64,000 bases of DNA from a candidate division WOR-3 bacterium (GCA_965649165.1 CBFGJT010000006.1:1592-65591); one strand, 5' to 3'. Numbered from the stretch's first letter, positions 1,856-38,979 are shown. Notes: generated from the sequence alone by a model not told the origin. Numbers and translations are program-made.

Positions 1856-1878
1856 AATTATCTGTTCTCCCAAACTTA

Positions 1879-3888
1879 TCATTCCAGCCGGACCTTCAGC
1901 GCCTGCAGCTCCCGGAGATTCGGCATCAACCGCAGCGCCTGCCGGACATAAGCCATCGCCTCCGCTTTGTTGCCGCGATCGATCATCAGTACCGCCAAGT
2001 TGTAAAGTGCCGGCACACAGTCCGGGTCCAGCTCCAACGCCCGGCGGTAGTAAAGCTCAGCCGATACCGTGTCGCCCAGTGCCACCAGCATACTGCCCAG
2101 CCGATTAACCAGCAGTGCCCGGCTTTTGGCAGTAGAGACGCTCGTGTCTGCTGATTGAAGAGTGTAAAACCCGTTGATTATCAGCCTTGCACTGTCACGC
2201 CATGCCGGTTCAACCGTTAAGAGCCGACTAAGTATCTCCCCAGCCTCCTTTGTTCTACCGCCAATACCGGTGGTGAGCGCCCGACCTAGCAGAGATGGGA
2301 CTAGGGTGGAATCAATTGCCAGTGCCTGCTCGAACCGCGCCCCAGCGCTGTCAACTCTTCCGGCAAAGAGATATCCGTAGCCGAAGTTGTTATGCACTCG
2401 GGCGGAACCGGGTTCCAGCTCTTCAGCAAGTCGCAGGTGGTGAAACATCCGGCGTAAGTCCCCCTTCCGGGCATAAAGCCCGGCGATGTTTATATGCGCT
2501 TCAACCAGCCCCTGATCCAGAATGATCGCACGGTTCAGAAGCCGGATTGCCGAATCGGGATTTGATGGGCTCAGCACCCGCGCCAGTCCCATGTAGGCGC
2601 TCGGGGCTCCTGGTGCCTCCCGGACCATCGCTGAAAACAGACTGAATTCATTCTCCCAGACCGGCATGCGCCGGAAACTGTCATATCCGAACACAATGGC
2701 GGTCAGTGCCAGCAGTGCTCCAGCAGCCTGCCGGGTGCGGTTGAGTGACCAAAGCAGCCGGGAGAGAAGCACTACCACCAGACCAACCAGACCTGCGGAG
2801 GCAGGATATAGAAGCCTTTCCGCTGCCTGCGGTCCGAGGAGAATAATATTGCTCACTGGTAGGAGAAGTAGAAATGCCCAAGCATAAGTCCAGAGCGCCA
2901 GCCGGAATCTTGCTCTGAGCGCTGCCAGTGGCACCGAAAAAAGAAATATCAGCGCATAAAGGAAAGAAGACTGGGGTTTCAGAAACGCCGGGTTTACCGG
3001 AATCTTGACATGGTGATCAAAGGGCCAGAAAAACATCCGAATGTAATAGCCGAAGGTATTGATCGCATTAGTAAGATCGACCGGGGAAAAGCCAGCCGGC
3101 ATCGGTATTGCTTGACGGAATACAATCCACCGCATGACCAGATATGCCCCCCCCGCGAGGAAAACACCCAGTACCATCAGATAAAACCCCCGCAGCGGCC
3201 GTACCTGAATCAGAAGCGGTGTCAACAGCACCAGCACCGGAAACGTAATGCCGGTCTCCTTGCTTAACACCCCGAAAAGAAAAAGCGGCGGCACCAGCCA
3301 CCACCAGCGCCGGTCCCGCTTCCGAAATGAGCGCAGTAGTGCAAAACCGGCTCCGGCAATGAATACGGTGAGCAGTAGGTCGGTCCGGCCCGAAACAAAG
3401 GCGATCGACTCCACATGAGTCGGATGAGTTGCAAACAGCAACCCGGCAATCCCCGCCCAGACACCGGAATGCAGCAGCTCCCACACGATCAGCGCAACCA
3501 GCACAGTTGATATTGCTGCCAAGACTACATTTACCAGATGAAAATATGCCGGGTTCAAACCGGCAAGTTTCAGATCCAGCCAGAAACTCAGTGTAGTCAG
3601 TGGACGGTAGTAAACCAAATATCGGTTCCATTCCGCCGCCTCGGTTCCACCCCAGAAGGGCCGGGCAAAAATACCCCAAGGCCCGGATTTGGTCAATAGA
3701 CGGTTTTCGACAATCAGCAGCCGGTCGTCCCAGACAAACTGATACTTCAGAGTCTGAAGATACAGCACCACCTGAATCATCGCTAGCGCTGCCAGAATCA
3801 GAGTCAGCCCGGGACGGGTGCGGAGTCGTTCAGCAATCTGTTGACTGCTCATTAATTCAAAGTTTCTAAAACCTTTGCACTCTGTCAA
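1879..3888 (-). CDS. Multi-pass membrane protein with C-terminal TPR repeats (possibly a PMT/ArnT-like GT-C glycosyltransferase)
   Basis: 669-aa ORF. The first ~420 aa are strongly hydrophobic and multi-spanning. The last ~230 aa are TPR-like (e.g. ELYYRRALELDPDCVPALYNLAVL). The true start may be the internal MSSQQ at 3852. Confidence 0.6.
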   Translation of the reverse strand: MTECKGFRNFELMSSQQIAERLRTRPGLTLILAALAMIQVVLYLQTLKYQFVWDDRLLIVENRLLTKSGPWGIFARPFWGGTEAAEWNRYLVYYRPLTTLSFWLDLKLAGLNPAYFHLVNVVLAAISTVLVALIVWELLHSGVWAGIAGLLFATHPTHVESIAFVSGRTDLLLTVFIAGAGFALLRSFRKRDRRWWWLVPPLFLFGVLSKETGITFPVLVLLTPLLIQVRPLRGFYLMVLGVFLAGGAYLVMRWIVFRQAIPMPAGFSPVDLTNAINTFGYYIRMFFWPFDHHVKIPVNPAFLKPQSSFLYALIFLFSVPLAALRARFRLALWTYAWAFLLLLPVSNIILLGPQAAERLLYPASAGLVGLVVVLLSRLLWSLNRTRQAAGALLALTAIVFGYDSFRRMPVWENEFSLFSAMVREAPGAPSAYMGLARVLSPSNPDSAIRLLNRAIILDQGLVEAHINIAGLYARKGDLRRMFHHLRLAEELEPGSARVHNNFGYGYLFAGRVDSAGARFEQALAIDSTLVPSLLGRALTTGIGGRTKEAGEILSRLLTVEPAWRDSARLIINGFYTLQSADTSVSTAKSRALLVNRLGSMLVALGDTVSAELYYRRALELDPDCVPALYNLAVLMIDRGNKAEAMAYVRQALRLMPNLRELQALKVRLE

Positions 3889-4114: not shown

Positions 4115-4735
4115 GTGCCTTTAGGTACCCGACTGACGAAAGTCAACCGGGTAAATCTTGAAATCCCATGTTTCCGGCTTGCCATCATCGACCAGTTCCC
4201 GGCTCCGAATTTCCGAGGTGCAAACCGCTACCGGACCGAATCGACTGTGGTTACCTTCAACCGCGAGGATCTCACACCTCTGAGCTCGCTCATCTATCCG
4301 GCAGAAAATGATACCCTGCTGTTTATTGCCGCGCACTATCAGGAACGAAATGCCCGGATCATTACTCGCACTTCTGACGGCGATATTGAAAACCGTCTGC
4401 CCACCGGTGCCCTGACATATGATTTCTGCCAACTGCCTTTCCTCTGCCGGAGTTTAAAAATCATCAGCGCTGAAATACCACTCCATATTCTCATGATCAC
4501 TCCGTTAACCGCACCCCTGGGCGGAATGTCAACTATTGCTGAACTGAGTCTTGTTGGCACCGATACCATAGACATTCCCGCCGGCTCATTTGAATGTGAG
4601 AAAATCCTGGTCCATCAGCCACACCTTGACGAAATTTACTGGATAGAAAAAAACGGCGCCCGAAAAATCATACTGTATGAGAACCTCTCCACCGGCAAGG
4701 GCCTAAGACTGACCGCCTCCGCTGTCAACTTTTAA
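4115..4735 (+). CDS. Hypothetical secreted protein or lipoprotein; the reading frame very likely begins upstream, near 3947
   Basis: ORF-track call is 206 aa starting at GTG 4115. The same frame is open back to 3917 and encodes a lipoprotein-type signal peptide (RRPNLILIPLTHLLISC) with no canonical start codon (see findings). Confidence 0.6.
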   Translation: MPLGTRLTKVNRVNLEIPCFRLAIIDQFPAPNFRGANRYRTESTVVTFNREDLTPLSSLIYPAENDTLLFIAAHYQERNARIITRTSDGDIENRLPTGALTYDFCQLPFLCRSLKIISAEIPLHILMITPLTAPLGGMSTIAELSLVGTDTIDIPAGSFECEKILVHQPHLDEIYWIEKNGARKIILYENLSTGKGLRLTASAVNF

Positions 4736-4879
4736 CACCGATCGCATTGCTAACAGATTGAAAAACAAACACTTGTAATACCAAACCTTGACCAGGTCTT
4801 AAAATGTCGCATTAAAACAAAATTAGACCTAACCCTATAACATATTGACAATTAAGAACTTGTATTTAAAGTTCTTTAT

Positions 4880-4895
4880 TGGCATACACGGTGCT
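4880..4895 (+). promoter_or_regulatory. Candidate sigma-54 (-24/-12) promoter
   Basis: TGGCAT-acacg-GTGCT. The GG and GC dinucleotides are separated by 10 nt, as in the consensus TGGCAC-N5-TTGCW. Confidence 0.35.
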
Positions 4896-4904
4896 TTTTA
4901 ATAT

Positions 4905-5200
4905 TAACGGGTTACATCCGAAAACGGATGTAACAAGAAGGAGGGAGTTTGGGGGTTGCGTTAGTTCGTTTGTAACGCAGGCGGGCTGATGTGGGCTCCA
5001 TAGTTTACCACCCCAGCAGTCCTCTCCAAAATCGGGCCTGTCTTAAAGAAGGCTCGCGCCTATCCACCTTAAGTCTCTGACTGCTTGCTGCCTACATCAG
5101 CCCGCCCCCAAATTAAGCCCCAAGGACGGAAATTTGCGGCTACCGCCGGTTGCCTCCTTAAAAAATCCGGGGCTTGACATCGCGTCAAGCCCCGGTTTTC
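4905..5200 (+). ncRNA. Candidate structured non-coding RNA of unknown family
   Basis: No credible ORF. A perfect 10-bp tetraloop hairpin lies at 4911-4934. A 17-bp long-range helix pairs 4980-4996 with 5090-5106. Complementary segments nest outside it. The locus ends at an intrinsic terminator, and no downstream same-strand gene exists. Confidence 0.35.
5167..5200. terminator. Bidirectional rho-independent terminator
   Basis: 12-bp stem CCGGGGCTTGAC/GTCAAGCCCCGG, flanked by an A-run (5159-5164) and TTTT (5196-5199). It sits 12 nt beyond the stop of the C25 peptidase gene. Confidence 0.65.
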
Positions 5201-5211
5201 GCCTCTGCCCG

Positions 5212-8200
5212 TTATTGGATGCGGACCAGTTTTTCCGTCTGCCCGTTAACCTTCAGGAAGAATATACCCCGCTCCGGGACCCTGGGTACCCAGTGCCAGT
5301 TTCCCGAAACCCCGGCATCGAGGATGTCCACCTGCTCCATTAGTCTTCCACTTGAATTATAAACCCGCATTTTCAGTGAACCGGGCTGATCCTGAATATA
5401 ACTAATGTTTACACTACGACTAAAAACCTTCGGCCGAACCTGGATCCGGAGCCGGAACAGGCGGCCTGGTCCTGCTTCTCTCATTCCTACCTGTGGCTCA
5501 TACCAGTTGAATGCGGTATCGGATGCGGCACTCATCTGCGCGACCGTTCTGCCACCGACAATGACGAAGGCAACAATCTGGCTGTCTCCGGGCAGAATCG
5601 CAAAGGGCCCGCAGGAGACCAGAGCATGCCAGTTCCCCCTGTTTGTTCCAGATACAGCACGTTGGGTGCCATCAAGAAAGTCCATCTTTTCCCTCTTGTT
5701 AAAACCGTCCTGAATATAGGTCTGATGAAAGATGCAGTTGGCAAAACCGGAAGCCTCCGGCGGATAAATTGGTCGGACACCAAGCGTCAGTGTTTCTGGC
5801 TGTGCCCGGACATAGGCAAGGTTGCGGATAGTGTCCACTCCGGGATAATCCACCGAATCGTTCTGGTTCCAGAATGCGGTCCGGAAATCGCATGCAACAC
5901 CAGCCCAGAGGTCGGTAATTGGCATCGTATCATTATTATGAATCCGGTATTCAAGTACCATGAAATCCTTGTGCTGGGTCCGCGCGCTCACAAATGAACG
6001 CTGAGTGATGGTTATTCCCTTCGGCTGGGGATGCCGGGCATCGGAGAATACCGCAACAAACTCCTGATCCCCGAATTCCGGCGGGAGCACCGGCCGGATC
6101 GAATCCACGATCGCAAAGTCCTGAGCCGTCACCCACCAGGGTGTGCCGTAATAATTGTCTGCCACCCAGAAAGTATCCGGGTATCTGATACCTAACAGCA
6201 GTGCGCCGTGCATCATTGCTGATGAGGACCAGGGGTGATTTTTCGGGTAAATGAACCCCAACCCTTCGCCCCGCCAGCTGGTAGTTCCGATACCACCGTT
6301 TGCACACACCGCAGCAACAAAGTCTGCAGTATCGTGGACCGCCCAAATCCCGGCGCGGGCATGGGGCATACCGATGACTACTTCCAGCTGTGAGGTGAAG
6401 GTCACCGAATCGGCATTGATTGTCAGTTCAAGCTCAACCCGCTGTCCGTGGGGACAGGTCGGGCTTACCCGCAGCCGGAACGGTTCGCCCGAAGCGGTAT
6501 CGCCCGGAGCGGTTGCTGGATAGCTGTTCACCGAATCTATTAAGGTTATGAAGGGCGAACATACGTGCAGAATTGCGGTCGCATTTCCTGCTGCCTGATT
6601 GCCATCGTTCGCAATTGTAATATAAACATTCACCTCGTCACCAGGGTCCAATCGCCCGTTTTCGTCGTCAACCCGAAGGTCGCGATACACAAGCAAGGGC
6701 CCGGCGTTACCGCTCCTTACTGCCAACATTTTCTCTGTCGGTGCACCGTCCTGTGCGGTTACGCTCAGTATTAGGCTCCAGGTATCACCAACCTGACTGA
6801 GCACTACCTGCGCCCGGCCATTTCCGTTGGTGATACCGCGTCCTATCAATGCGTCACTATGCAGTACCGCCACCCTGGCACCAGCTGCTGGCTGCCCCTC
6901 GGCATACCGCACATCAACCGCAAGTATCTGAGGTTCTGCCCGAATCGTATCCAGGCAGGAAACGAGTAGACCCTTGGGTGTAGTGCGCCACAATAGCATC
7001 GTCGGATCTCCCTGCAGCGTCCACTCATAGACTGACCAGCGATAGGTCATTTGACTAAAAGCAGCGTTCCGGAAGAAATCCTTAGCTAACGCATATGCCC
7101 TTCCCTGATTGAATCCCCGGAGGTAGTTATTGTAAAACTCCATGCACAGATTCTCTGAAGGCCCCATATTCGGCGGTGCGCCCCAGCCGTAGCGGGCGTT
7201 CAGACAGGTTGATACCGCACCGCCGGCAGTGGCATTAATAAACTGCTCGCCCAGCCCGTCCTGCTGGTCAAAATTTCCGCAGTCACATGCCATTGAGTTG
7301 ACGATAATCGGCATAGTCGTATTGGTCAGCGAGCTGAGGTTGCTGGTGGAAAATGTTGAACCAAACGCACTCACCGAGCCGTGGCCCGCAAAATGAAACA
7401 GATGCCGGCCGGCGTTGATACTCGCCACGCACTGAGACGGACTCATATTGTAGACCGAGTCCACAGTCCAGACTCCGATTCCCGACAGGGCAAGGGCAAT
7501 ATTTCTGTTCACAATCCGGCCGTAATAGTCAATGTTTGACCACAGGGCTTCAAATGGCAAAAGAGCTTTATGGAGATAGGTTGTATCCGGATGGCGCTCA
7601 TAGAGCGTGTCCTTGCGCAGAAAATTGGCAAGGTGACTGGCATCGTCCAGTGGCAGCCGGCCCACCACAATATCGGAAAATAAATCCACAGAATCCGGAT
7701 TGTAATTGGTATAGGAATATTCACCAAACTGCCCGTTGTTGTTAAAATCCCAGGTGCCGTCCAGGTCTGAATAGTAAAGGTCGGCAGGAACGTTGTAAGG
7801 CGAATAGGGCAGATAACCAGTACGGCAGGGCACATGCTGGACATCCCCAGCTAAAACGACATACTTGAGTCCGCGGGTAACAAACAGCTCCTTGAGCAGA
7901 TTCCGGATCTTCTCAGGGTTGTCCCGCCCCGGATACCGAACATAAATCGACTCCGTAGCAAATACCTCGGTAAAGTAACCCTTGCGTTGCAGGTAGCTGG
8001 CAAAACTGCTAACCGCCGGCATTAAGGTGCTGGAGGTAATTACCGCCACATCCAACTCCGGACCGTCAGATTCCACTGTTGCCGGCGCAAACCTTTCAAT
8101 ATCCTTGTGATTAAGCACAAGCCGGGCAACATCTTCACGCACAAGCATCAGCTGGCCGGGACTGAGATGAGTAACCGGGACAGAACCGGATTCATACTCA

Positions 8201-27921: not shown

Positions 27922-29487
27922 TCAAGGGCTGACGAGCAGACGGCAGGCGGTGCGGGTCTCGGAGCGGAAGAAGTAGATTCCGGGCGGGACCGGACTGCCG
28001 TGATTGCTGTAACCATCCCAGACCGGACTTGAACCGGTTGTTACCAGCGCGCCCCGGGAATCATAAATTGTCCAGCGCGGGTGATCCTTTTGAACTGGCA
28101 GATAAAATGGTGGCCGTCCGACAACAGGGCGGGCGGTCAGCAGTGATGACCGGTCACCGGCCTCAGCGTTTCCGGTCGGCACCATTGCACCGGCGAGCTT
28201 GGCAATGGTGGCAACCGCCGCCTTTATCGCCTCAGTTGCCATCAGCCAGTTGTTCGTGCCGCAGTTGACATAATAGAGCGGACCGATTGTGTCGCCGATC
28301 GTATGGTACATCGGCGTGAAGTCATGCTCAATCCCGCACAGGGCAACATAACCCCGCTGCCAGAACGAATGATGGTCCGAATAGGGGGCAGAGTTCACAA
28401 GCCGGCGCACCGGCTTGAGCGCAGTATAAGTTCGGGCATTGGCGATAAATGAGTCCACGAGCCAGGCGCAGGCAGGGTTGGAGATTTTGCCGATCACCTC
28501 AAAGGAGTCCAAGTTTTGCCGGCCATAGGAGATCATGTCAAAGTTCAGTGCCGCTTTGATTGAGTCCCCGCGCCGGGCAGCCCGGCGGCAGAAGCTGTCT
28601 GAGCCGAAAAGCCCCTGTTCCTCACCGGTGAAGCCGATGAAATAAACTGAATAGGCAAAGTTTATACCCTGAAATACCCGCGCCGCCTCAATCACCGCCG
28701 CGGTGCCAGAGGCGTTGTCATCCGAACCCGGGCAGTGGTCGGGGGCATAATCTGAGGTGTTGTCAATATGTCCGCAGATCACATAGATCGGCCTGGGGTT
28801 GACTCGTCCCAGCTTCACGCCCACGACATTCGGGGCGTAACTGGGGCGGTAGGTCTCAAGTGCGGTGGAGTCACAGCCGTAAGCGGTCAGTTTTTCCCGC
28901 AGCCATTCGACCGCAGAACGGCAGGATTCGGTGGTGGAGTAGCGGGTGTAAAAATCCTGAAGGCGCCGGATATGGGCAAGCACCGAGTCCGGGTTTACCC
29001 GCTCAACCAGCGCAGCAATCAAACTTTCTGAGACTATAACCGGTGCGGGCAGCGGAGCTGCCGGCTGAAGGTTAACCGGTTCAAGGGGCAGATGGCAGAG
29101 TTCGACCGGCAGGCGGTTGAGATCAAGGAGCTGCGTCTCATCGGTTGCCAGCAGAACTCCGCCGGGTGTTTCGCCGGCAATCAGACCGAACCGGTCAAGC
29201 TGGCGCCGGTCAAACCCGGCCGGGGTCTTGACATAGAACAGCTGTTTATCAGCGGGCAGGTTCAGGACCGAAAACAATCCCGGCAGATAGTCAAGCGCGG
29301 CAAGTCGGGCTTCGTCCACACTGAGCAGACAGCGGTCCTCCAGTTCCGCCACCACCGGAAACGGGATCTGACCGACATCTATGCCGGCAAAACCTGGTCC
29401 CGGCGACCACTGCACCAGCAGTTCGCCGGCGACCAGCGGCAGGATAAAAACATTTACTAAAAACAGAACGGTCACACCTTTTTTCAC
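27922..29487 (-). CDS. M28 family aminopeptidase with T9SS-type C-terminal domain
   Basis: Zinc-ligand contexts CGHIDN, DDNASGTAAV and FTGEEQGLFGS. The C-terminus ends GIYFFRSETRTACRLLVSP. Confidence 0.8.
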   Translation of the reverse strand: MKKGVTVLFLVNVFILPLVAGELLVQWSPGPGFAGIDVGQIPFPVVAELEDRCLLSVDEARLAALDYLPGLFSVLNLPADKQLFYVKTPAGFDRRQLDRFGLIAGETPGGVLLATDETQLLDLNRLPVELCHLPLEPVNLQPAAPLPAPVIVSESLIAALVERVNPDSVLAHIRRLQDFYTRYSTTESCRSAVEWLREKLTAYGCDSTALETYRPSYAPNVVGVKLGRVNPRPIYVICGHIDNTSDYAPDHCPGSDDNASGTAAVIEAARVFQGINFAYSVYFIGFTGEEQGLFGSDSFCRRAARRGDSIKAALNFDMISYGRQNLDSFEVIGKISNPACAWLVDSFIANARTYTALKPVRRLVNSAPYSDHHSFWQRGYVALCGIEHDFTPMYHTIGDTIGPLYYVNCGTNNWLMATEAIKAAVATIAKLAGAMVPTGNAEAGDRSSLLTARPVVGRPPFYLPVQKDHPRWTIYDSRGALVTTGSSPVWDGYSNHGSPVPPGIYFFRSETRTACRLLVSP

Positions 29488-29784: not shown

Positions 29785-31161
29785 CTAACGTAGAATCAAG
29801 AGTTTGTGCCAGCGGTTTCCATTGGATAGAAAGTAAACTCCGGGTTTCCGGCGGGAGCCGGTCAGGTTTACCCTTCTGCCGGCAGGATCAAGAGCCGTGA
29901 TGGCGGTGGTTAAAACTGGTTTTATGGTGCGGGGTCGGGACACAAGCGGGGGTACCAGCTGGGAGAAGAATAGACCACGGGCGGTTGTGCCTGCTCCATA
30001 GTGACTGAACAGTGCGCCCGAGCTGAGCGCCCTGGGCCGGGCACCAAAGGCTGTGGCGTTAGCCCGCGAATCATTGATTTTCAGTGGGAAACTGAGCAGA
30101 AAGGGCGCATAGGAGCGGGCATAACGGTAATAGATTACCGTCGGGTCAATTTCACCACCGGCACCAGCATTGTAGAGCAGGTTGAGGGTGGTGCTGGTGG
30201 CGGCGAGGCTGGGCCACCATTCATTAATGAAGGGTTCACCGAGGTTAACCGGCGCCGAAAAGGTGCTGCCACCGTCAGTTGAGCAGGTGAGGAGCAGGTC
30301 CAGCATCTCAGTATCACGACGGGCAACGGTCCAGGCGATCCAGACCGGCGCACGCCACGGGGGGGTGGTTTCAGCCTGAACCACCGCAGGCGTAAAGCAT
30401 TTTTCGCCGGTAGCATAAAGCACCTGCAGCAGCTCCCACCGGCCGGGCGCACCAAAGTGCCGGTTCCGGGTGTAATGGAGCTGGCGGTTGTCAGTTGCAT
30501 AGCGCCAGACACAGTGGAGAGTGCCGGCACCGAAGTAAAGGCACGGTTGAGAGCAGTTGTAAAAATCCTGAGGCGGTTCCCAGGTGCTGCCGAGATCCAA
30601 CGAGCGGGTAAATTGGCCATTGGGTCCGGTCCGGTGTTCGCGGACATATAGACAGTAGAGATAGGGACGGGAGTTATTGTCAACGGCAACGGTGAACTGG
30701 TCGATCGTGTCCGGTCCGACCGCAACCGGCAACCAGTCCCGAATGGTGAAATCGGATGTGGTTCGGAGTAGCCACAGGTCTCCACCCGCGCGGGTTGTCA
30801 GTAAAAATATGTAGATTTTTGCTGGATCCGATTCGACGATCAGGAGTTCTGCCTGCCTGACCGGAGCCGGCACGGGCATTGTCAGCATCATTTCCCAGAA
30901 GCTACCCTGATCTGAAGAGCGATAAACTTTCAGAATTGAGTCCGGGGTGATCAGGAGTGCATAGATGCTGCCAGCATAGTCCTGAGCACCGGTAAGCACC
31001 TCTACGGAGCAGGTGTCAATGACAATCTCATCCTGATACATATCAAATAGCGGCTGGTTGTCGGTCAAGAGCGGTACTGAGTTCCAAGCAGTTTTTGTCG
31101 TGGTCAGACCAGGGCCGGAAATCAGTCCGGTTAGAAGAAAAAGCGCAGTAAAAATCGGCAT
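29785..31161 (-). CDS. BNR/Asp-box repeat (sialidase-like beta-propeller) protein with T9SS-type C-terminal domain
   Basis: Asp-boxes SSDQGSFW, SLDLGSTW and STDGGSTF, plus a signal peptide. The C-terminus ends GVYFLSNGNRWHKLLILR. Confidence 0.65.
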   Translation of the reverse strand: MPIFTALFLLTGLISGPGLTTTKTAWNSVPLLTDNQPLFDMYQDEIVIDTCSVEVLTGAQDYAGSIYALLITPDSILKVYRSSDQGSFWEMMLTMPVPAPVRQAELLIVESDPAKIYIFLLTTRAGGDLWLLRTTSDFTIRDWLPVAVGPDTIDQFTVAVDNNSRPYLYCLYVREHRTGPNGQFTRSLDLGSTWEPPQDFYNCSQPCLYFGAGTLHCVWRYATDNRQLHYTRNRHFGAPGRWELLQVLYATGEKCFTPAVVQAETTPPWRAPVWIAWTVARRDTEMLDLLLTCSTDGGSTFSAPVNLGEPFINEWWPSLAATSTTLNLLYNAGAGGEIDPTVIYYRYARSYAPFLLSFPLKINDSRANATAFGARPRALSSGALFSHYGAGTTARGLFFSQLVPPLVSRPRTIKPVLTTAITALDPAGRRVNLTGSRRKPGVYFLSNGNRWHKLLILR

Positions 31162-31287
31162 GTCACAAATAACTTATCAGCGGGAGGGCAGAAAGTCAAT
31201 TTTAATCATCAGCTAAAAATTGAAAAATTCGGCAAAGCAGATTTGCTTGAGCTGCAATTTTCTACAGATATAATATCAGAGACACTT

Positions 31288-32895
31288 ATGAGCAGCCGGC
31301 GACAGGTTCCAGTTGTGCTTGTGCTCTATGACACGCCAGGCAAGTTTCAAACCCTGGTGGAATATGCTCGTCAGTTTGACAATGGCAGACTGGCGCAGGA
31401 GTTTAAGTTTGTCTATTGCGACTGCCTGGACGGGATAAAAAAATGGTACCGGCAGAATGCAGGGGTTCATGTTGCCGGCATTGTGCTCGGAGTTGATTTC
31501 TCCGGGGTGGACAGCGAGCAGAAGCTGGCGGTTTCCCCTCTGGGATTGCGTCCTGCTGGCTTGGCAATGGATGTCCGCCGGCTTCAGGGTTTTATTATCT
31601 ATTACCATATGCGCCACCTTAATATTGAGCAGATCGCCCCGGTAGTATTTCACCTCGGCGCTGAGCTGCTGCAGTCGCCAGAACGGTATATTGATATCTG
31701 TCACGTCCCCGGACTGGGTGAATGTCATTTTGCCGGTCCAGCAGGCGACGAATGTGAGGAGCTGGCGGTGCTGAAAAAGCTGGATCTGTGTGCGCTCAGA
31801 CCACTTACAGATGACAGACGGTTCTACTGGCGGGAGAATCACAAAATGGTGGTCGGCAGGTCACGGCGGATGGCTGCGCTCGTGCGGGAAATTGAGCGCA
31901 CCGCACCAACCGACAGCATTGTCTTGGTGATCGGTCCGCCCGGCACCGGCAAGGAGCTTGTCGCCCAGGCGATTCACCATCTGAGTTACCGCTATTCAGA
32001 GCGGGTGCCGGAGAGGAGGAATGTACTGACGGTGCAGATGACCACGATGGACAAGAATCTCTGCATTGATGAGCTTTTTGGGCACGAGGCCGGCGCCTTT
32101 ACCGATGCCCGGACACCGCGTGCGGGGATCTTTGAGGCTGCCCGGGGGTCCACCGTTTTTCTGGATGAGATCGGAGAGATTGACCAGGAGCTGCAGAAGA
32201 AACTGCTCCGAGTGATTGAGTATCACCGGATTAAAAGGCTGGGGAGTTCAGTGGAGAAGGAGGTTGATGTCCGGATTATTACCGCAACGAACCGGACGAT
32301 CGAGGAGCTGCAGCAGCGGTTCCGGAGCGACTTTTACACCCGACTCGTTCAACACTGTATTGCGGTGCCTTCGGTTGCTGAGCGCTGGTTTGGAGAAAAG
32401 CCGCAGACGGTTGAGGATGATATTGGCGAGTTTTTTGACTTCTTTATAAGCGAGCGGAACCAAAATCCCTATGTCCGACAGAAACTGCAGCCGGACCTGA
32501 ACGCAGTACGGTTTCTCACTCAGATTGTGCTCCAGAATATTTCCGGAGAAAGACCGCTTTTTACCGCGGGCAACGTACGCACGCTGCGGGCAATTATCAA
32601 TCAGGCTTATGACCGGGCACAGTATGAACACTCGCGCATAATAAGCGTTGGACATATTGCCACCGCTGTCGCCCAGTTTCAGGCACAGATAGCCCCGCCT
32701 GCACCCGGAGTTAAACCCGGCACCCAAGCCAGTATTGAACATATTGTCGGTTCGCTGAAACTGTCAGAGCTGGAGAAGCTGGCAATCCAGGAGGCGCTGA
32801 TAAAATGCAACGGTAATCAGAGCCGAGCAGCAGCACTTCTGGGAATCCATCGTGACACGTTAAGAAAGAAAATCAGAGAATACGGCATAAGTTAA
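31288..32895 (+). CDS. Sigma-54-dependent transcriptional activator (bEBP) with non-canonical N-terminal domain
   Basis: AAA+ core with GPPGTGKELVAQAIH, GAFTDA (a GAFTGA-loop variant) and TVFLDEIGEI. The C-terminus has a Fis-type HTH, RAAALLGIHRDTLRKKI. ATG 31288 lies 13 nt after TATAAT 31269-31274. The track start, TTG 31243, is upstream of that promoter. Confidence 0.85.
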   Translation: MSSRRQVPVVLVLYDTPGKFQTLVEYARQFDNGRLAQEFKFVYCDCLDGIKKWYRQNAGVHVAGIVLGVDFSGVDSEQKLAVSPLGLRPAGLAMDVRRLQGFIIYYHMRHLNIEQIAPVVFHLGAELLQSPERYIDICHVPGLGECHFAGPAGDECEELAVLKKLDLCALRPLTDDRRFYWRENHKMVVGRSRRMAALVREIERTAPTDSIVLVIGPPGTGKELVAQAIHHLSYRYSERVPERRNVLTVQMTTMDKNLCIDELFGHEAGAFTDARTPRAGIFEAARGSTVFLDEIGEIDQELQKKLLRVIEYHRIKRLGSSVEKEVDVRIITATNRTIEELQQRFRSDFYTRLVQHCIAVPSVAERWFGEKPQTVEDDIGEFFDFFISERNQNPYVRQKLQPDLNAVRFLTQIVLQNISGERPLFTAGNVRTLRAIINQAYDRAQYEHSRIISVGHIATAVAQFQAQIAPPAPGVKPGTQASIEHIVGSLKLSELEKLAIQEALIKCNGNQSRAAALLGIHRDTLRKKIREYGIS

Positions 32896-33004
32896 TAAAA
32901 TCTGCAGAAAAAATAAGCAGTAACCGCCGTATTATTAAGCAGGATAAATAGGGCCACTATTTATAACCATTTTAAAATAAGAGTGTTAGTTAAATATTTA
33001 TAAT

Positions 33005-33020
33005 TGGCACATAATTTGTA
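33005..33020 (+). promoter_or_regulatory. Candidate sigma-54 (-24/-12) promoter upstream of tldD
   Basis: TGGCAC-ataat-TTGTA. The -24 element is a perfect match and the -12 element is TTGT rather than TTGC. It lies 110 nt after the bEBP stop and about 200 nt before tldD. Confidence 0.4.
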
Positions 33021-33220
33021 TATATTATTATTGCCTTTTGACCGAGCCTGAAACGGGGTTACAGGGGGTAGCGCTTTAGGTATTGGCTGGATTCCCCAGC
33101 CGGCGCAGATAAATTGGGCGGTGTGCCAGTTCCCACGGCGCATCGCCCTTTTCCTTTGCGCTGGTTTATGGCCGTTAAAGTTGACATTACATTATATTTT
33201 ATTATTCTGTGGAGACTGAT

Positions 33221-34585
33221 ATGAAGGCGTTTCTCAAAGAGGTGCTTGCCGGGCTGGCAGTGGATTATGCCGATATCCGGGTTGAAGAGAGTGAAACCAC
33301 GAGGATTGTATATCGCGGCCGGGAGCTTGAGGATATCGGTACCAGTTTTGAGCGGGGCGGATGTCTGCGGGTTTTCTATCGGGGAAACTGGGTGATTGCC
33401 AGCTTTAATACTGTGGATGAGTCGCTTAAGGAGTTGGCAGATGAGCTGGCGATTCAGGCAGCAGAACTGCCACCGCGGGAAGGTGGTCTGATCCACCTGC
33501 CGGCACTTGACGAGATAATCCGCATGCCCAGGCATGAGGACCCGAGGGCGGTGCCGCTCGCGCGCAAGCAGCAGTTGATTCACGATTACAACCGGCTGCT
33601 TCTGGAGCCGAAGCAGATAATAAGTACGGTATCGTCATATCTGGATAGCCACAGGACCGTTTACTGGTATTCGAGCGAGGACCGTTACATTGAGCAGGAG
33701 TTTGTGCGCACCGGTTTTTCCTGTCAGGCGATTGCCCGGGACGGAGCCAACATTCAGCAGTATGGAGAGTCCTTTGGCCGGGCCGCTGGGTTTGAGTCGC
33801 TTTCGGGCAAGGAGGGTATGGTTGAACGGGTGGCAAAAATTGCGATTGACCTGCTAAAGGCGGAGCCGGTGAGTGCCGGGACATATACGGTGATCATTGA
33901 TCCGCTGCTCGGCGGAATATTTGCCCATGAGGCGTTCGGCCATCTGAGTGAGGCAGATCACATCGCGGAAAATGAACGGCTGAAACAGCTGATGCGAATC
34001 GGAACCCGGTATGGGGTTGAGGAGCTGACAATTGTTGATGACCCGACCCTGCCGGGCGAAAACGGCAGTTACCGCTATGACGATGAGGGGGTACCGGCTC
34101 AGCGCACCGAACTGATCAAAAACGGGGTGATCTCCAGCCATTTGCACAGCCGGCATACCGCCTATCTGATGGGAGAGGGTGCAACCGGTAATGCCCGGGC
34201 TGTCAGTTACCGGTTTGCTCCGATCGTGCGGATGAGTAACACCTACATCGTGCCCCAAAACCGGCGGTTTGATGAGATGCTGGCTGAGGTCAGGGATGGG
34301 CTTTATGTCGTGGGCAGCCGGGGTGGAATGACCGAGCTGGAAACATTCACCTTTTCTTCCCAGTATGCTTACCGGATTGAAGATGGCAAGCTCACGAAGA
34401 TGGTCCGGGATGCGACCCTTGCCGGCAATGTGTTTGAGACCTTGAAGAATATTGATGCCATCGGCAATGACCTGAGGATTCATGGCGGGCTCGGCGGTTG
34501 TGGAAAGGATGGGCAGTCGCCGCTGCCGGTCACGACCGGTGCCCCGCACATCAGAATCAGAAATGTGGTAATCGGCGGCCGATAA
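33221..34585 (+). CDS. tldD: TldD family metalloprotease
   Basis: HExxxH motif HEAFGHLSE and C-terminal GGCGKDGQ. ATG 33221 is preceded by GGAG. The track start is GTG 33209. Confidence 0.85.
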   Translation: MKAFLKEVLAGLAVDYADIRVEESETTRIVYRGRELEDIGTSFERGGCLRVFYRGNWVIASFNTVDESLKELADELAIQAAELPPREGGLIHLPALDEIIRMPRHEDPRAVPLARKQQLIHDYNRLLLEPKQIISTVSSYLDSHRTVYWYSSEDRYIEQEFVRTGFSCQAIARDGANIQQYGESFGRAAGFESLSGKEGMVERVAKIAIDLLKAEPVSAGTYTVIIDPLLGGIFAHEAFGHLSEADHIAENERLKQLMRIGTRYGVEELTIVDDPTLPGENGSYRYDDEGVPAQRTELIKNGVISSHLHSRHTAYLMGEGATGNARAVSYRFAPIVRMSNTYIVPQNRRFDEMLAEVRDGLYVVGSRGGMTELETFTFSSQYAYRIEDGKLTKMVRDATLAGNVFETLKNIDAIGNDLRIHGGLGGCGKDGQSPLPVTTGAPHIRIRNVVIGGR

Positions 34586-34609
34586 TAAGTTAACCAGCAG
34601 GAGGAGGAG

Positions 34610-35911
34610 ATGAGACTGGAGCTCCTGGAGCTGGCAGCCAGTCGGGTGGAGCAGGCTGATGTGTATGAGAGTGAGATTGACCTGACCGAAGTGGTTTTCC
34701 GGCAGGGTAAATTTTTCGCTCAGGAGACCAAGTTGACCCATGGTCTGGGGTTGCGGGTAATTAAAAACGGCAAGGTGGGTTTTGCCGCCAGTACTAACCC
34801 CCAGCGGCTAAAGGAGCAAATCCAGGCTGCGATCGATGCCGCTGCTTTCGGGCAGACCGCCAGGTTTGATCTGCCGGGTCCGGCTGAGCCACCTGCGGTT
34901 CAGACCTTTGATAACCGCACTCTGCTCGTCAACATTCAGAAGATGCGGGAGTGGGGTAGTGATCTGATTGAGGCACTGAATTCCCGGATGCCCGAGCTTA
35001 AGGCCGACCTGCATTTCAGTCGCTGTTATCGGGAGATCGGGTTGGCAAATACACGCGGGGCTGACCTTAGCTTTGAGCGGGTGGAGCTGGAGCTGTCGAT
35101 TGCCGGTCTGCTGGTGCAGGACGGTATTTTCTGGGTTTATGATTATGTTAATCTTTCCGGCGGGCAGAGCTTTCCGCTCGATCAGGTGGCAGAGCGCGTG
35201 GTAAATCTCGCCCGGCTGGGCAAGCAGAAGGCAACACTCAAAAGCGGAGATTATCCAGTGGTGGTAATGCCATTTGCGCTGCCCCAGCTGCTTTTGCCCC
35301 TGCTGATTGCGGTCAACGGAAAAAACCGGCAGAAAGGCACTTCGCCCCTGATCAACCGGGAAAATCAGGCGGTGCTGAGCTCGAAGATTACGCTTGCGGA
35401 CAATCGTCTGCGGCCGTTTGGGACTGCATCCGCTCCATTTGATGGTGAGGGGCTGCCGGCGGTCAGGAAGGTGCTGTTTGAGCGTGGAGTATTCAAAGGT
35501 TTTATCTACGACCTGGCAACCGCAGCCGCCTGCGGCACAAACTCAACCGGTTCCGCGGTGCGAAGCTATTCCAGCCTGCCTGTGCCCGGTCTGAGTAATA
35601 TTGAAATTGAACCCGGGACCGCAGAGCTGGAAAGTGTCATCAAGGATATCCCCGTCGGGATGCTCGTCTACGGTTTTCTGGGTGGCGGGATGTCCAATCT
35701 TCTTGCCGGTGAAGTGGCACTGAATGTCAGCTGCGGCTACAAGATTGAAAAAGGTAATATCACCGGCAGGCTCAAGGATGTAAGTGTTGCCGGCAATGTT
35801 TATGATCTGTTTCAGCGGGTGGAGGCGGTGGGCGCAACCCAGCGGGACCTGGGTGATTATTATCTCCCGTTTATAAAATTTTCCAGTTTCCGGGTGGCAT
35901 GTAAGGAGTAA
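34610..35911 (+). CDS. pmbA: PmbA/TldE family protein
   Basis: 433 aa, TldD/PmbA-fold paralogue without HExxxH. It sits immediately after tldD. Confidence 0.8.
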   Translation: MRLELLELAASRVEQADVYESEIDLTEVVFRQGKFFAQETKLTHGLGLRVIKNGKVGFAASTNPQRLKEQIQAAIDAAAFGQTARFDLPGPAEPPAVQTFDNRTLLVNIQKMREWGSDLIEALNSRMPELKADLHFSRCYREIGLANTRGADLSFERVELELSIAGLLVQDGIFWVYDYVNLSGGQSFPLDQVAERVVNLARLGKQKATLKSGDYPVVVMPFALPQLLLPLLIAVNGKNRQKGTSPLINRENQAVLSSKITLADNRLRPFGTASAPFDGEGLPAVRKVLFERGVFKGFIYDLATAAACGTNSTGSAVRSYSSLPVPGLSNIEIEPGTAELESVIKDIPVGMLVYGFLGGGMSNLLAGEVALNVSCGYKIEKGNITGRLKDVSVAGNVYDLFQRVEAVGATQRDLGDYYLPFIKFSSFRVACKE

Positions 35912-35922
35912 AGGGGGGTATT

Positions 35923-38427
35923 ATGCCAAAAGCAAAGCGTGCAAAGCGAGAGGGCAGGGCCGCGGTACTGATGACCGATTTCCATCGGCTGGAGCTGAAG
36001 CCAAAGGATCTGCGCTGGTGTTGTCCGGATGATTATCTGAAATTCAGGACTACCGAAGATCTGAAGGTTTCCCGGGAAATTGTTGGGCAGGAGCGGGCAC
36101 TGGCTGCACTCGGTCTAGGGCTGGAGATCGAAGCTTCGGGTTACAACATTTTTGTGACCGGTCCCGCCGGTTCGGGACGGACGAGCACGGTTCAGCGGCT
36201 GCTGGAGACGGCGCGGCCAGTCAAGACCCTTACCGACAAGTGTTTTGTGAACAATTTTCAGAATCCGGACGAGCCCCATTTACTGCTGCTACCTGCAGGC
36301 AGAGGCCGGCAGCTGCGCCAGGAGATGGATGAGCTCGTTGCCTATCTGGTTAAAAACATTCCGCGACAGTTCGAGGGCGAGGCGTACCAAAATTCGCGGC
36401 AGGAGATCATCGACCGGTTCAAGGAGCAGGGGGCGGCACGGGTCCGGGATTTTGAGAAGAAGGTGGCAAGCGAGGGGTTTGCACTCGTGCAGACACCGCC
36501 GATGGGCCGGCCGGAGCTGGCGCCGATCGTTGACAAGCAGCCCGTGAGTGTCGATGTGCTTGACCGGCTGGTGGAGGAGGGCAAGCTGACTCCGGAGCGG
36601 GCAAATGAGCTGAAGAACCGGCACCGGGAACTGACCGCGGAGCTGATGGCGATCTTTAAGGAACTCCGGGAGTATGAGCGGCAGGCACGGGAACATCTGG
36701 CTGAACTGGATAAACAGATGGTGAGTCCTCTGCTTGAAGAGCGTCTGGCGGAAATCCGTGAGCGCCACCAGGACCCCAAAGTATCCTGTTATCTTGACGA
36801 GGTCCGTACCGCGGTGTTAGCCGACATTGAGCTGTTCCGTCAGCGCGGGGGCGAATCCGAAGCCGGACCGCCGGCCGGCATTGATCCCTATCTGAAATAC
36901 CGGGTGAATGTGCTCGTTGATAACTCGGATCAGAAGACCGCTCCGGTGGTATTTGAGACCAATCCCAGTTATCGCAATCTCTTCGGTTCGATTGAGCGCA
37001 TCTGGGATCGCTCCGGGCAGTGGCGGACCGATTTTACCCATATTAAAGCCGGTTCGCTGGTGCGGGCAGACGGCGGGTTTCTTGTCGTGAATGCGCTCGA
37101 TCTCCTGCTCGAGCCCGGGGTGTGGCCCAACCTCAAGCGGACTCTGCGCAACCGGCAGCTGGAGATTTCCGCCTATGATCCGTTTGTTTCGCTGTTTGGT
37201 ACGACCGCGCTCAAACCGGAACCGATCCCCTTGGATCTGAAGGTAATCATGATCGGTGAGCCCTGGGTTTACAACCTGCTCGCCGCTTATGATGAAGAGT
37301 TTGGCAAGGTGTTCAAAGTCCGGGCAGACTTTGACTGGGAGATGGATCTGAACCGTAGTTCGGCAGCTGAATACAGTCAGGTCATTAGAGCTCTGTGTGA
37401 AAAGGAGAACCTCCGGCCCTTTGACCGGACCGCAGTTGCGCGGGTGATTGAGTATGGTGCCCGGCTGGCAGGGCGAAGGGACAAGGTGACCACCCGCTTT
37501 AATATTATCGCTGATGTGCTCAAGGAGGCAGACTATTGGGCAGGCAAGGCACAGTCCCGGCTGGTAAAGGCTGAGCATGTCCGGACTGCGATCGAAAAAC
37601 GCCGGGAGCGGGTCCGGCTGATCGAAGAGAAGCTGCAGGAGAGTATCCGCAAAGGGCTTCTCTTTATTGATGTCCGAGGAAAAGTTCTGGGGCAGGTGAA
37701 TGGGCTGGCAGTCTACGATCTGATTGAGCATTCGTTTGCAATCCCAGTACGGATTACGGCCAAGGTCGGCGTGGGAACCGCCGGGATCATCAGTGTCGAG
37801 CGGGAGGCGGAGCTCTCCGGTCCGATCCACGACAAGGGGCTTTATATCATCACCGGTTATCTACGGAACAAGTATGCGGCGGATATGCCGCTGGTGCTTT
37901 CGGCATCGATCACATTTGAACAGTCTTACGGTGGGATTGACGGTGACAGCGCCTCTTCAACCGAGCTCTATGCGCTGCTTTCCGAGCTTGCCGGGCTGCC
38001 GCTGCGCCAGGATTTGGCAGTGACCGGCTCGGTGAACCAGAAGGGTGAGATTCAGCCGATCGGCGGGGTTAATGAGAAGATCGAAGGGTTTTTTGATATC
38101 TGCCGGCAGAAGGGTTTAACCGGTTCCCAAGGGGTTCTGATTCCGAAGGCAAACCTTGGCGACCTAATGCTGAGGGAGGATGTGGTTGAGGCGGTAAGCC
38201 AGGGCCGGTTTCATATCTATGCGATTGAGACGATCGACCAGGGAATCGAGCTGCTTACCGGTGTGCCGGCAGGGAGCCCCGGACGCAATGGTGATTATCC
38301 GCCGGACACAGTTAACGGCCGGGTGAAGGCACGATTAAGGGAGTTGGCTGAGCTCTTCCGGCGGTTTCGAGCCGAAGATTCGAAATTCAGCGGGCCGCGC
38401 CAGTCCGCCGGAGACGACAAACTTTAA
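35923..38427 (+). CDS. Lon-like (COG1067/LonC-type) AAA+ serine protease
   Basis: N-terminus carries IVGQERALAALGLGLEI and Walker A GPAGSGRTS. The C-terminal S16 domain carries GIDGDSASSTELYALLS and VTGSVNQKGEIQPIGGVNEKIEGFF. Confidence 0.8.
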   Translation: MPKAKRAKREGRAAVLMTDFHRLELKPKDLRWCCPDDYLKFRTTEDLKVSREIVGQERALAALGLGLEIEASGYNIFVTGPAGSGRTSTVQRLLETARPVKTLTDKCFVNNFQNPDEPHLLLLPAGRGRQLRQEMDELVAYLVKNIPRQFEGEAYQNSRQEIIDRFKEQGAARVRDFEKKVASEGFALVQTPPMGRPELAPIVDKQPVSVDVLDRLVEEGKLTPERANELKNRHRELTAELMAIFKELREYERQAREHLAELDKQMVSPLLEERLAEIRERHQDPKVSCYLDEVRTAVLADIELFRQRGGESEAGPPAGIDPYLKYRVNVLVDNSDQKTAPVVFETNPSYRNLFGSIERIWDRSGQWRTDFTHIKAGSLVRADGGFLVVNALDLLLEPGVWPNLKRTLRNRQLEISAYDPFVSLFGTTALKPEPIPLDLKVIMIGEPWVYNLLAAYDEEFGKVFKVRADFDWEMDLNRSSAAEYSQVIRALCEKENLRPFDRTAVARVIEYGARLAGRRDKVTTRFNIIADVLKEADYWAGKAQSRLVKAEHVRTAIEKRRERVRLIEEKLQESIRKGLLFIDVRGKVLGQVNGLAVYDLIEHSFAIPVRITAKVGVGTAGIISVEREAELSGPIHDKGLYIITGYLRNKYAADMPLVLSASITFEQSYGGIDGDSASSTELYALLSELAGLPLRQDLAVTGSVNQKGEIQPIGGVNEKIEGFFDICRQKGLTGSQGVLIPKANLGDLMLREDVVEAVSQGRFHIYAIETIDQGIELLTGVPAGSPGRNGDYPPDTVNGRVKARLRELAELFRRFRAEDSKFSGPRQSAGDDKL

Positions 38428-38979
38428 TCCTTCTTCAATACTGAGAGGCGTTTCCGTAATATCGGTTTCCGGAACGATTGCCAGCCAGCCGCTGGTAGGG
38501 TTGGGTGCGGTTGGGAAAAAAACCAGAAATGCCCGGCGGCCGTCGGCAAGTTCCACCGGTTCTTCACCGGTGAGGAAACCGAGCGCAAGAATCCCCTTCC
38601 GGGGATATTCTACCAGCACAGTTTTGCGCAGTGAGGAACGTTTGATAAAGACCGCATCGGTAAGCTGGCGGGCTGAGGTGTAAACCGAGCTGGCGAGCGG
38701 CAGCTGGCGGAAGAAACGGTCCAGCCAGGTCAAAAAGTGCCGGCCGAGATAGCCGGAGGTCAGGGCACCGAGCAGAGTGATTACGCCCATGAGCACCAGA
38801 AAACCGATAAGAGTTAAAAGGATCGAGGGTAGCTGCTGAAGCCAGCGCAGGTGGCGCAGCAAGGGCTGGAGGATGCTGCCGAGGTGGGAGATGATGAACC
38901 AGAGGACAAACACCGTCAGTCCAACCGGCAGTATTGCTGCCAGCCCGGTGATAAAGTAGCGGCGCAGCCGTGGGAGCAT
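38335..38979 (-). CDS. DUF502 family membrane protein
   Basis: 214 aa. The N-terminus RRYFITGLAAILPVGLTVFVLWF is typical of DUF502. Its 3' end overlaps the Lon-like gene by 93 nt. Confidence 0.7.
   Translation of the reverse strand: MLPRLRRYFITGLAAILPVGLTVFVLWFIISHLGSILQPLLRHLRWLQQLPSILLTLIGFLVLMGVITLLGALTSGYLGRHFLTWLDRFFRQLPLASSVYTSARQLTDAVFIKRSSLRKTVLVEYPRKGILALGFLTGEEPVELADGRRAFLVFFPTAPNPTSGWLAIVPETDITETPLSIEEGLKFVVSGGLARPAEFRIFGSKPPEELSQLP

Follow-up and report, generated by a model that had tools for sequence, protein, structure and literature searches.

CrcZ, encoded after cbrB in Pseudomonas, and Qrr1, encoded beside luxO in Vibrio, are small RNAs that depend on sigma-54 and a sigma-54 enhancer-binding protein (bEBP) and end at an intrinsic terminator; CrcZ, with its CA-rich motifs, serves as a protein sponge, and the Qrr RNAs are Hfq-dependent base-pairing RNAs. 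Here we describe a cassette of the same layout in a 64-kb stretch of DNA from candidate division WOR-3 (GCA_965649165.1 CBFGJT010000006.1:1592-65591; the whole stretch is termed the window), in which a bEBP gene is followed by a structured RNA that has neither of these motif sets and then by genes for three proteases, TldD, PmbA/TldE, and a LonC-type protease. In PMC4253122, NrsZ of Pseudomonas aeruginosa is placed in the intergenic region after ntrC, behind an NtrB/C-dependent promoter TGGCAC-N5-CTGCA, and CrcZ is given an RpoN consensus promoter; ntrC-nrsZ, as described there, too has its small RNA gene directly after the gene for its own sigma-54 activator, as in the window (PMC4253122). 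The differences are in the parts: NrsZ shows no sequence or structure similarity to the window RNA, which has no Rfam match, and it is processed from repeated stem-loop units, unlike the window RNA. NtrC has a canonical phosphorylated receiver and an adjacently encoded cognate kinase, whereas the window bEBP has a degenerate receiver-like domain and no kinase gene was found near it in the window or near its relatives in the seven loci found by homologue look-up. The phylum also differs. Judged by layout, the closest analogues of the cassette are ntrC-nrsZ and cbrB-crcZ. With the cassette, the known pairing of an activator with a small RNA gains a case in the uncultured phylum WOR-3, and the RNA of the cassette and the input domain of its bEBP are new. 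We propose that the sigma-54 promoter probably makes a short terminated RNA and that the proteases use an ordinary promoter of their own. As delineated by comparison of loci, the conserved unit consists of the bEBP gene, tandem enhancer sites, the sigma-54 promoter, and the terminated structured RNA. Newly defined in WOR-3 are, then, an RNA family without an Rfam entry and, with it, a dedicated regulator, enhancer sites, and promoter.

The window was compared with about 50 related loci (designated below by L and a number), seven from the homologue look-ups and 46 from metagenomes scanned with an alignment specific to the family; tblastn was used for the neighboring genes. A profile scan of genome contigs with the full-length alignment returned mostly generic bEBPs; L011 was of use, and the rest served as negative controls. 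The full-length search gave about 98 full-length homologues of the bEBP at 41 to 90% identity, nearly all of the taxon-named ones being from WOR-3, with scores falling sharply from 350 to 184 bits where generic response-regulator bEBPs begin. WOR-3 is represented in this material by metagenome-assembled genomes only; literature searches returned nothing linking WOR-3 with sigma-54 or RpoN, and domain annotation of the window and the family loci shows no rpoN box.

The evidence for the RNA begins with an intergenic alignment of four loci, the window and three relatives with bEBP identities of 89, 61, and 54%, in which the -24/-12 element is followed by a conserved block, about 125 nt long, that extends from GACCGAGCC to a long hairpin and a run of T, and in which a conserved GTTGACAT lies immediately 5′ of tldD. 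The block is also found 3′ of the bEBP gene in loci without protease genes (L007, L008, and L011), and nhmmer recovers a single plus-strand copy per locus, 140 to 290 nt past the bEBP stop, in 42 loci. With a covariance model built from 33 unique sequences, 35 unique family loci score between 34 and 161 bits (the window 90 bits, E = 1e-24), each having one plus-strand copy at the distance just given; the copies in L106/L107 and L120 are weaker and only partial. No copy was found by this model among the 45 unrelated bEBP loci, where the best E value was 0.5, nor a second one in the 64-kb window. The terminal hairpin, a GC-rich stem of 11 to 12 bp, has compensatory changes in 9 of 11 tested pairs, with 98% of cells paired; when the structure is tested as a whole, pairing holds in 96% of cells and falls to 29 to 51% if the partners are slid by one to three columns, and none of 500 shuffles reaches the observed covariation. 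G-U pairs fit the plus strand only, and model scores on the reverse strand are far lower, which fixes the orientation of the RNA. The loop of the hairpin keeps CCCAC, more than a plain terminator would need. Free energies of the hairpin lie between -13 and -28 kcal/mol across the 35 loci. At least five of the 12 nt past it are T in 28 of them; the U-tracts are short or interrupted in high-GC loci such as L007, L110, and L135. For the window RNA as a whole, the folding free energy is -56 kcal/mol (z = -2.8). A scan of the window against Rfam 15 gave no family at or above its gathering score, and the best subthreshold matches are noise (BjrC80 at 15 bits, and Scr3202 at 26 bits against a cutoff of 52); permissive thresholds likewise gave only noise for the window RNA and one major-clade RNA. 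An earlier, preliminary description of this DNA had recommended that the interval be searched for conserved structure or small peptides: a conserved, covarying RNA is there, but the window RNA has no plausible open reading frame (ORF).

Table 1. Positions of the cassette and the adjoining protease genes, counted from the first nucleotide of the window
Feature	Position	Strand	Remarks
Sigma-54 enhancer-binding protein (bEBP)	31288..32895	+	535 aa from ATG; ORF 31243/31288-32895; Pfam, homologues
Putative enhancer (upstream activating sequence, UAS) site 1, GCAGA-AAAAA-TAAGC	32904..32918	.	One-mismatch form of family motif
Putative enhancer (UAS) site 2, GCCGT-ATTAT-TAAGC	32926..32940	.	One-mismatch form; 22 bp after site 1
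Predicted sigma-54 promoter TGGCAC-N5-TTGTA (TGGCAC-ATAAT-TTGTA)	33005..33020	+	Conservation; predicted start near 33031
Structured small RNA, ~128 nt	33031..33158	+	Ends predicted; nhmmer, covariance model, covariation
Invariant GACCGAGCC	33040-33048	+	Starts ~10 nt into RNA
Hairpin GGCTGG-ATTCC-CCAGCC	33085-33101	+	Some compensatory support
Terminal hairpin, loop AGTTCCCAC	33116-33127 / loop 33128-33136 / 33137-33148	+	Covariation
U-tract	33149-33157	+	After terminal hairpin
Predicted sigma-70-type promoter TTGACA-N16-TATTCT	33181..33208	+	Scan score 10/12; very short leader; for tldD-pmbA-lonC
TldD metalloprotease	33221..34585	+	454 aa; HEAFGH at residue 236; E. coli TldD 5nj5_A, E = 2.5e-49
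PmbA/TldE partner subunit	34610..35911	+	433 aa; without HExxxH
LonC-type Lon-like protease	35923..38427	+	834 aa; degenerate Walker A GPAGSGRT; 4fwd TTC1975 peptidase best PDB match, E = 6e-90

The -24/-12 element of the preliminary description is present 109 nt 3′ of the bEBP stop and is conserved in relatives. Its spacing is that of the sigma-54 consensus (TGGCAC-N5-TTGCW, in which the GG at -24 and the GC at -12 are ten bases apart), and it has GG at -24 and a change of C to T at -12. The pattern by itself is not significant, with one match in the window against 0.29 expected and at least one match in 25 of 100 shuffles; we take the element to be real because related loci conserve it at this position. 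Of 37 loci, 34 have TGGCAY-N5-(T/G/A)TGC(A), the last C being C or T, 16 to 81 nt before GACCGAGCC, within flanks that are unalignable. One could instead suppose that the -24/-12 match is due to chance or reflects a sigma-70-like promoter, TTGGCA-N16-TATTAT at 33004-33031, and that the block is a 3′-untranslated region (UTR) element of the bEBP mRNA; this pair of hexamers indeed scores 10/12 in the sigma-70 scan, and the sigma-54 match of the single window carries no significance of its own. We nevertheless regard this explanation as extremely improbable, given the unvarying distance between GG and (T)GC in those 34 loci, which include high-GC ones without anything like a -10 hexamer, the enhancer-type repeats upstream at a typical distance, and the fact that the neighboring protein is a sigma-54 activator.

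The repeats belong to a family motif, GCnGn-(AT-rich N5)-nCnGC, of which 35 exact copies occur within 125 nt 3′ of the bEBP stop in 41 loci, a density of 6.8/kb versus 0.45/kb elsewhere in the loci (15-fold). Most loci have one or two copies directly 3′ of the bEBP stop, those in pairs being about 20 to 23 bp, and usually about 21 bp, apart. The sites are located about 70 to 100 bp upstream of the -24 element, which we counted as consistent with the approximately 80 to 150 bp expected of upstream inverted repeats. Of the two small palindromes in the preliminary description, CTGC-N11-GCAG (32902-32920) lies in the conserved UAS site 1. The other, AAATAG-N5-CTATTT, had been misplaced at 32980-32996, its actual position being 32946-32962, and is not conserved; it is absent from the closest relative and was dropped as a regulatory site.

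The same description had the sigma-54 promoter driving the protease operon through an untranslated stretch of about 200 nt. That stretch is instead occupied by the discrete RNA with its strong, covarying hairpin and U-tract, followed by the sigma-70-type promoter, whose TTGACA at 33181-33186 had been noticed and is present. In each of the 16 inspected loci with TldD or LonC, the RNA hairpin and the start codon have a match to TTGACA-N16/17-TAnnCT between them. The corresponding element of the GT4 clade is TTGACC-N17-TAATAT, and 28 of 35 loci have TTGAC[ACT]-N15-19-TAnnnT past the hairpin and before the next gene. Further, the cassette is not confined to proteases. Beyond the TldD-PmbA-LonC set, TldD(-PmbA) follows it in L104 and L108 and LonC alone in L102 and L116-118, whereas the largest group of other distant loci has a GT4 glycosyltransferase and the rest have a GNAT-like gene (L007, L109, and L122), a gene for an FG-GAP/type IX secretion system (T9SS) protein (L110), or unrelated genes. 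Five downstream gene sets (TldD-PmbA-LonC, LonC alone, GT4, GNAT-like, and FG-GAP) thus share the cassette, so that the RNA travels with the activator and not with the proteases; a cis-acting leader or riboswitch would be expected to precede a single downstream family or pathway, which is not what was found.

These observations bear directly on the possibility that the sigma-54 promoter does regulate tldD-pmbA-lonC, with the RNA being its 5′ leader and possibly a conditional terminator of an attenuator or riboswitch-like kind. Such a leader would fit the conservation of the neighborhood, which the preliminary description had proposed to test: the order bEBP-RNA-tldD-pmbA-lonC is kept in all relatives with a bEBP at least 50% identical and enough downstream sequence (L103 aside, and with LonC only in L102), and parts of it persist in distant lineages, where TldD(-PmbA) or LonC alone follows the cassette in two of the three major clades. 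It would also fit a downstream gene that is always on the same strand, and terminators are seldom 100% efficient. We still consider it unlikely, as the terminator is strong and covarying, the sigma-70-type promoter intervenes in 16 of 16 loci, and the RNA also precedes GT4, GNAT-like, and FG-GAP genes, unlike a gene-specific leader; moreover, the RNA block and the tldD promoter of L003 lie apart, with about 100 nt of unrelated sequence between them. A candidate antiterminator of the window, GGCGCA/UGUGCC, is not kept in L001, and no conserved alternative pairing was found. A very unlikely variant, to our mind, is a dual-function RNA, a terminated small RNA from which partial read-through boosts the downstream gene, as with some small RNAs derived from 5′ UTRs: the same-strand genes in all five contexts and the short or interrupted U-tracts of high-GC loci speak for it, and the downstream sigma-70-type promoter in 28 of 35 loci speaks against it. 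The sigma-54-gated protease operon is an attractive but probably wrong annotation, which is now corrected, and the case illustrates how a “long 5′ UTR” behind a sigma-54 promoter can conceal a separate small RNA gene.

The history of the adjacency is a separate matter. Close relatives also keep the whole downstream block (DUF502, aminotransferase, LPG synthase, and GT2), and loci linked to proteases are found in two of the three major clades of a neighbor-joining bEBP tree, from which we conclude that the adjacency is probably ancestral and was replaced several times. One may go further and postulate that bEBP-sigma-54 RNA-tldD-pmbA-lonC was the ancestral unit and that the RNA is tied to proteolysis, either by conditional read-through or by action on the protease mRNAs or proteins. 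Although we rate this as quite unlikely, it would, if true, mean that a phosphorylation-independent receiver-like domain and sigma-54 gate TldD/PmbA and LonC proteolysis in WOR-3, and that the protease-less lineages retain the RNA arm alone.

Returning to the preferred reading, that of an activator gene coupled to a terminated small RNA, we propose the following circuit. The bEBP would be activated by way of the divergent, receiver-like domain at its N terminus, and its Fis-type helix-turn-helix (HTH) would bind the two tandem inverted repeats 9 to 45 nt past its own stop, sites that are defined by conservation. It would then activate sigma-54 RNA polymerase at the -24/-12 element about 95 nt downstream, a promoter likewise recognized by its conservation. 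The transcript is predicted to be a structured RNA of about 128 nt, with lengths in other clades reaching about 185 nt, that begins about 10 nt before GACCGAGCC and ends at the terminal hairpin, whose covarying stem, CCCAC loop, and U-tract would act as an intrinsic terminator. The tldD-pmbA-lonC genes would be transcribed mainly from the TTGACA-N16-TATTCT promoter just past it. In the weakest step of the scheme, the RNA would most likely be a regulatory small RNA that acts in trans by means of its 5′ motif and its C-rich loops: C-rich unpaired stretches are present as CCUCCUCACC in most clades and as UUCCCC and UUCCCAC in the window, and, together with the invariant 5′ motif, they suggest base pairing with G-rich ribosome-binding sites. 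With a sigma-54 promoter, a covarying hairpin with a U-tract, and no ORF, all beside a bEBP gene, the element has the makings of a small RNA gene, albeit one with predicted ends. As the whole regulatory circuit is legible from the sequence alone, it is testable in a heterologous host.

Several points weigh against this reading. The -12 element of the window has GT, not GC. The 5′ and 3′ ends of the RNA and the efficiency of termination are themselves predictions. The data allow a GAGC/GCUC helix in the 5′ domain, but its pairs never covary. The complement of GACCGAGCC has 17 matches in the window versus 16.9 expected, with no targets found there. In the loci with good covariance-model scores, a same-strand gene invariably comes next, 57 to 350 nt away, as a leader or read-through would likewise predict. 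Finally, the protease adjacency, probably ancestral as noted above, may be functional.

The 5′ domain of the RNA is conserved in sequence (GACCGAGCC ... GCGC), single-sequence folds of it disagree between clades, and a blind column-pair scan was too noisy. Two further pairings were considered and set aside: a 5′-leader helix, GAGAGU/ACUCUC, which, judged by eye on the alignment, is confined to the major clade, and a pseudoknot between the leader and the terminal loop, GUGGGC/GCCCAC, for which the loop variants have no compensating changes. RNAs of the major clade have about 35 nt more at the 5′ end, a conserved segment, CAUGCUGGGAUAGCGGUGGGCCCUGAGAGUCA, that lies ahead of GACCGAGCC and past the promoter (e.g., L131 at ~940-985 and L011 at ~1525-1565); it is missing from the window clade and was left out of the covariance model. 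In L106 and L120, the 5′ motifs are kept and the 3′ part is different, and past the weak RNA copy of L106, about 1.4 kb (4300-5750) is without a convincing long ORF on either strand. In L009 (11771-11950) and L114 (7760-7870), a sigma-54 promoter, a different hairpin-rich RNA of about 100 to 150 nt, and a clear terminator lie 3′ of the bEBP gene. This RNA is not detected by the covariance model and may represent another RNA family that occupies this position of the locus; the gene that follows it in L009 is on the opposite strand, which we count in favor of a free-standing small RNA.

The bEBP itself had been correctly recognized in the preliminary description by its AAA+ core, GAFTDA loop, and Fis-type HTH. 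Pfam profiles match the AAA+ sigma-54 interaction domain (Sigma54_activat, PF00158; E = 3e-48) and the C-terminal HTH (HTH_8), and the AAA+ loop reads GAFTGA, GAYTGA, or GAFTDA across the family. The N-terminal region, residues 1 to about 186, had been singled out as an atypical sensor, and it is indeed without any Pfam match; it is, however, not a new sensor fold but, according to structure prediction, a divergent receiver-like one. By sequence, none of the 34 family members matches the PF00072 Response_reg profile at E values up to 1, a Pfam profile search revealed no similarity to the FleQ domain, and no PDB chain was matched. A word-seeded homology search with the domain alone gave no matches, the full-length query being needed; an exhaustive HMMER search with the N-terminal domain over 1.84e9 representatives gave only nine proteins, of which the top six are members of the bEBP family or fragments thereof and the last three are weak and partly repetitive. 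An AlphaFold (AF2) model from the family alignment (predicted local distance difference test score, 87; predicted template modeling [TM] score, 0.85) has a beta-alpha-beta-alpha pattern consistent with the (beta-alpha)5 flavodoxin-like fold of receivers. The best Foldseek matches to this model in the PDB are receivers (FleR 7w9h, the best of all, Spo0A, PhoP, and ComE; E = 2e-4 to 1e-3), with target-normalized TM-scores of about 0.55 to 0.64 for single-domain receiver entries. An insertion of about 25 to 30 residues between strand 3 and helix 3 is modeled with low confidence. With positions equated by secondary structure and not by superposition, the family consensus has DD after strand 1, D70 after strand 3 in at least 90% of members, commonly Ser after strand 4, and no conserved Lys after strand 5, whereas the window bEBP has YD, D70, Leu replacing the Ser, and no Lys.

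As modeled, then, the N-terminal domain is a lineage-specific, highly divergent, and degenerate receiver-like fold. Degenerate receiver-like N-terminal domains are carried by bEBPs of the FleQ/FlrA type, which have the same order of a receiver-like domain, AAA+, and a Fis-type HTH and whose receiver-like domain lacks part of the phosphorylation residue set, as that of the window bEBP appears to. Unlike these, the window domain shows neither Response_reg nor FleQ sequence similarity, has the insertion, and is restricted to the WOR-3 family. The set of bEBP input domains thereby gains a lineage-specific, strongly degenerate receiver-like member.

The three protease genes had been correctly identified, with gaps of 24 and 11 nt between them, and are ordinary members of their families when compared with the TldD/PmbA of E. 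coli (5nj5) and the 4fwd peptidase, which is presumably the LonC of Meiothermus taiwanensis: the domains agree, HExxxH is found in TldD only, and the Walker A motif of the LonC-type protein is degenerate. The latter also has the helical domain and the Lon_C proteolytic domain of the LonC family, and its Ser/Lys catalytic dyad was read by eye from the sequence. The start of tldD was set at the ATG used by homologues, the mechanical ORF beginning with a GTG at 33209. What is particular to the clade here is the tight tldD-pmbA-lonC operon. The 3′ end of lonC overlaps that of a convergent DUF502 gene (minus strand, 38335-38979) by 93 nt (38335-38427); the overlap is the same in L001 and L002 and is 60 nt in L005 and L006.

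On the other side of the bEBP gene, an ARAGORN call of an 88-nt tRNA-Leu(CAA) on the minus strand (27975-28062), inside the 3′ end of an M28 peptidase ORF (27922-29487), is probably a false positive, because homologues of the ORF are full length (520 aa) and the Rfam tRNA model has no match in the window. Divergently upstream of the bEBP gene, most family loci encode a protein of about 460 aa (29785-31161 on the minus strand of the window, 8503-9876 in L001, 8476-9858 in L003, and 8121-9605 in L008), which is more widely kept than TldD and retains 39 to 44% identity over 60% of its length in distant loci. It has no Pfam domain, a signal-peptide-like N terminus, one weak BNR/Asp-box match, and a possible T9SS-type C terminus. 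Between the M28 peptidase gene and the gene for this protein, L001 (4667-7762) and L002 (2846-5944) have a fused restriction-modification gene of the MmeI/Eco57I type and a UPF0758_N gene, which are absent from the window. L007 belongs to CP070680.1, a complete WOR-3 genome, and there the reverse transcriptase of a group II intron (RVT_1 + GIIM; 1868-3247) is encoded about 7 kb upstream of the bEBP gene.

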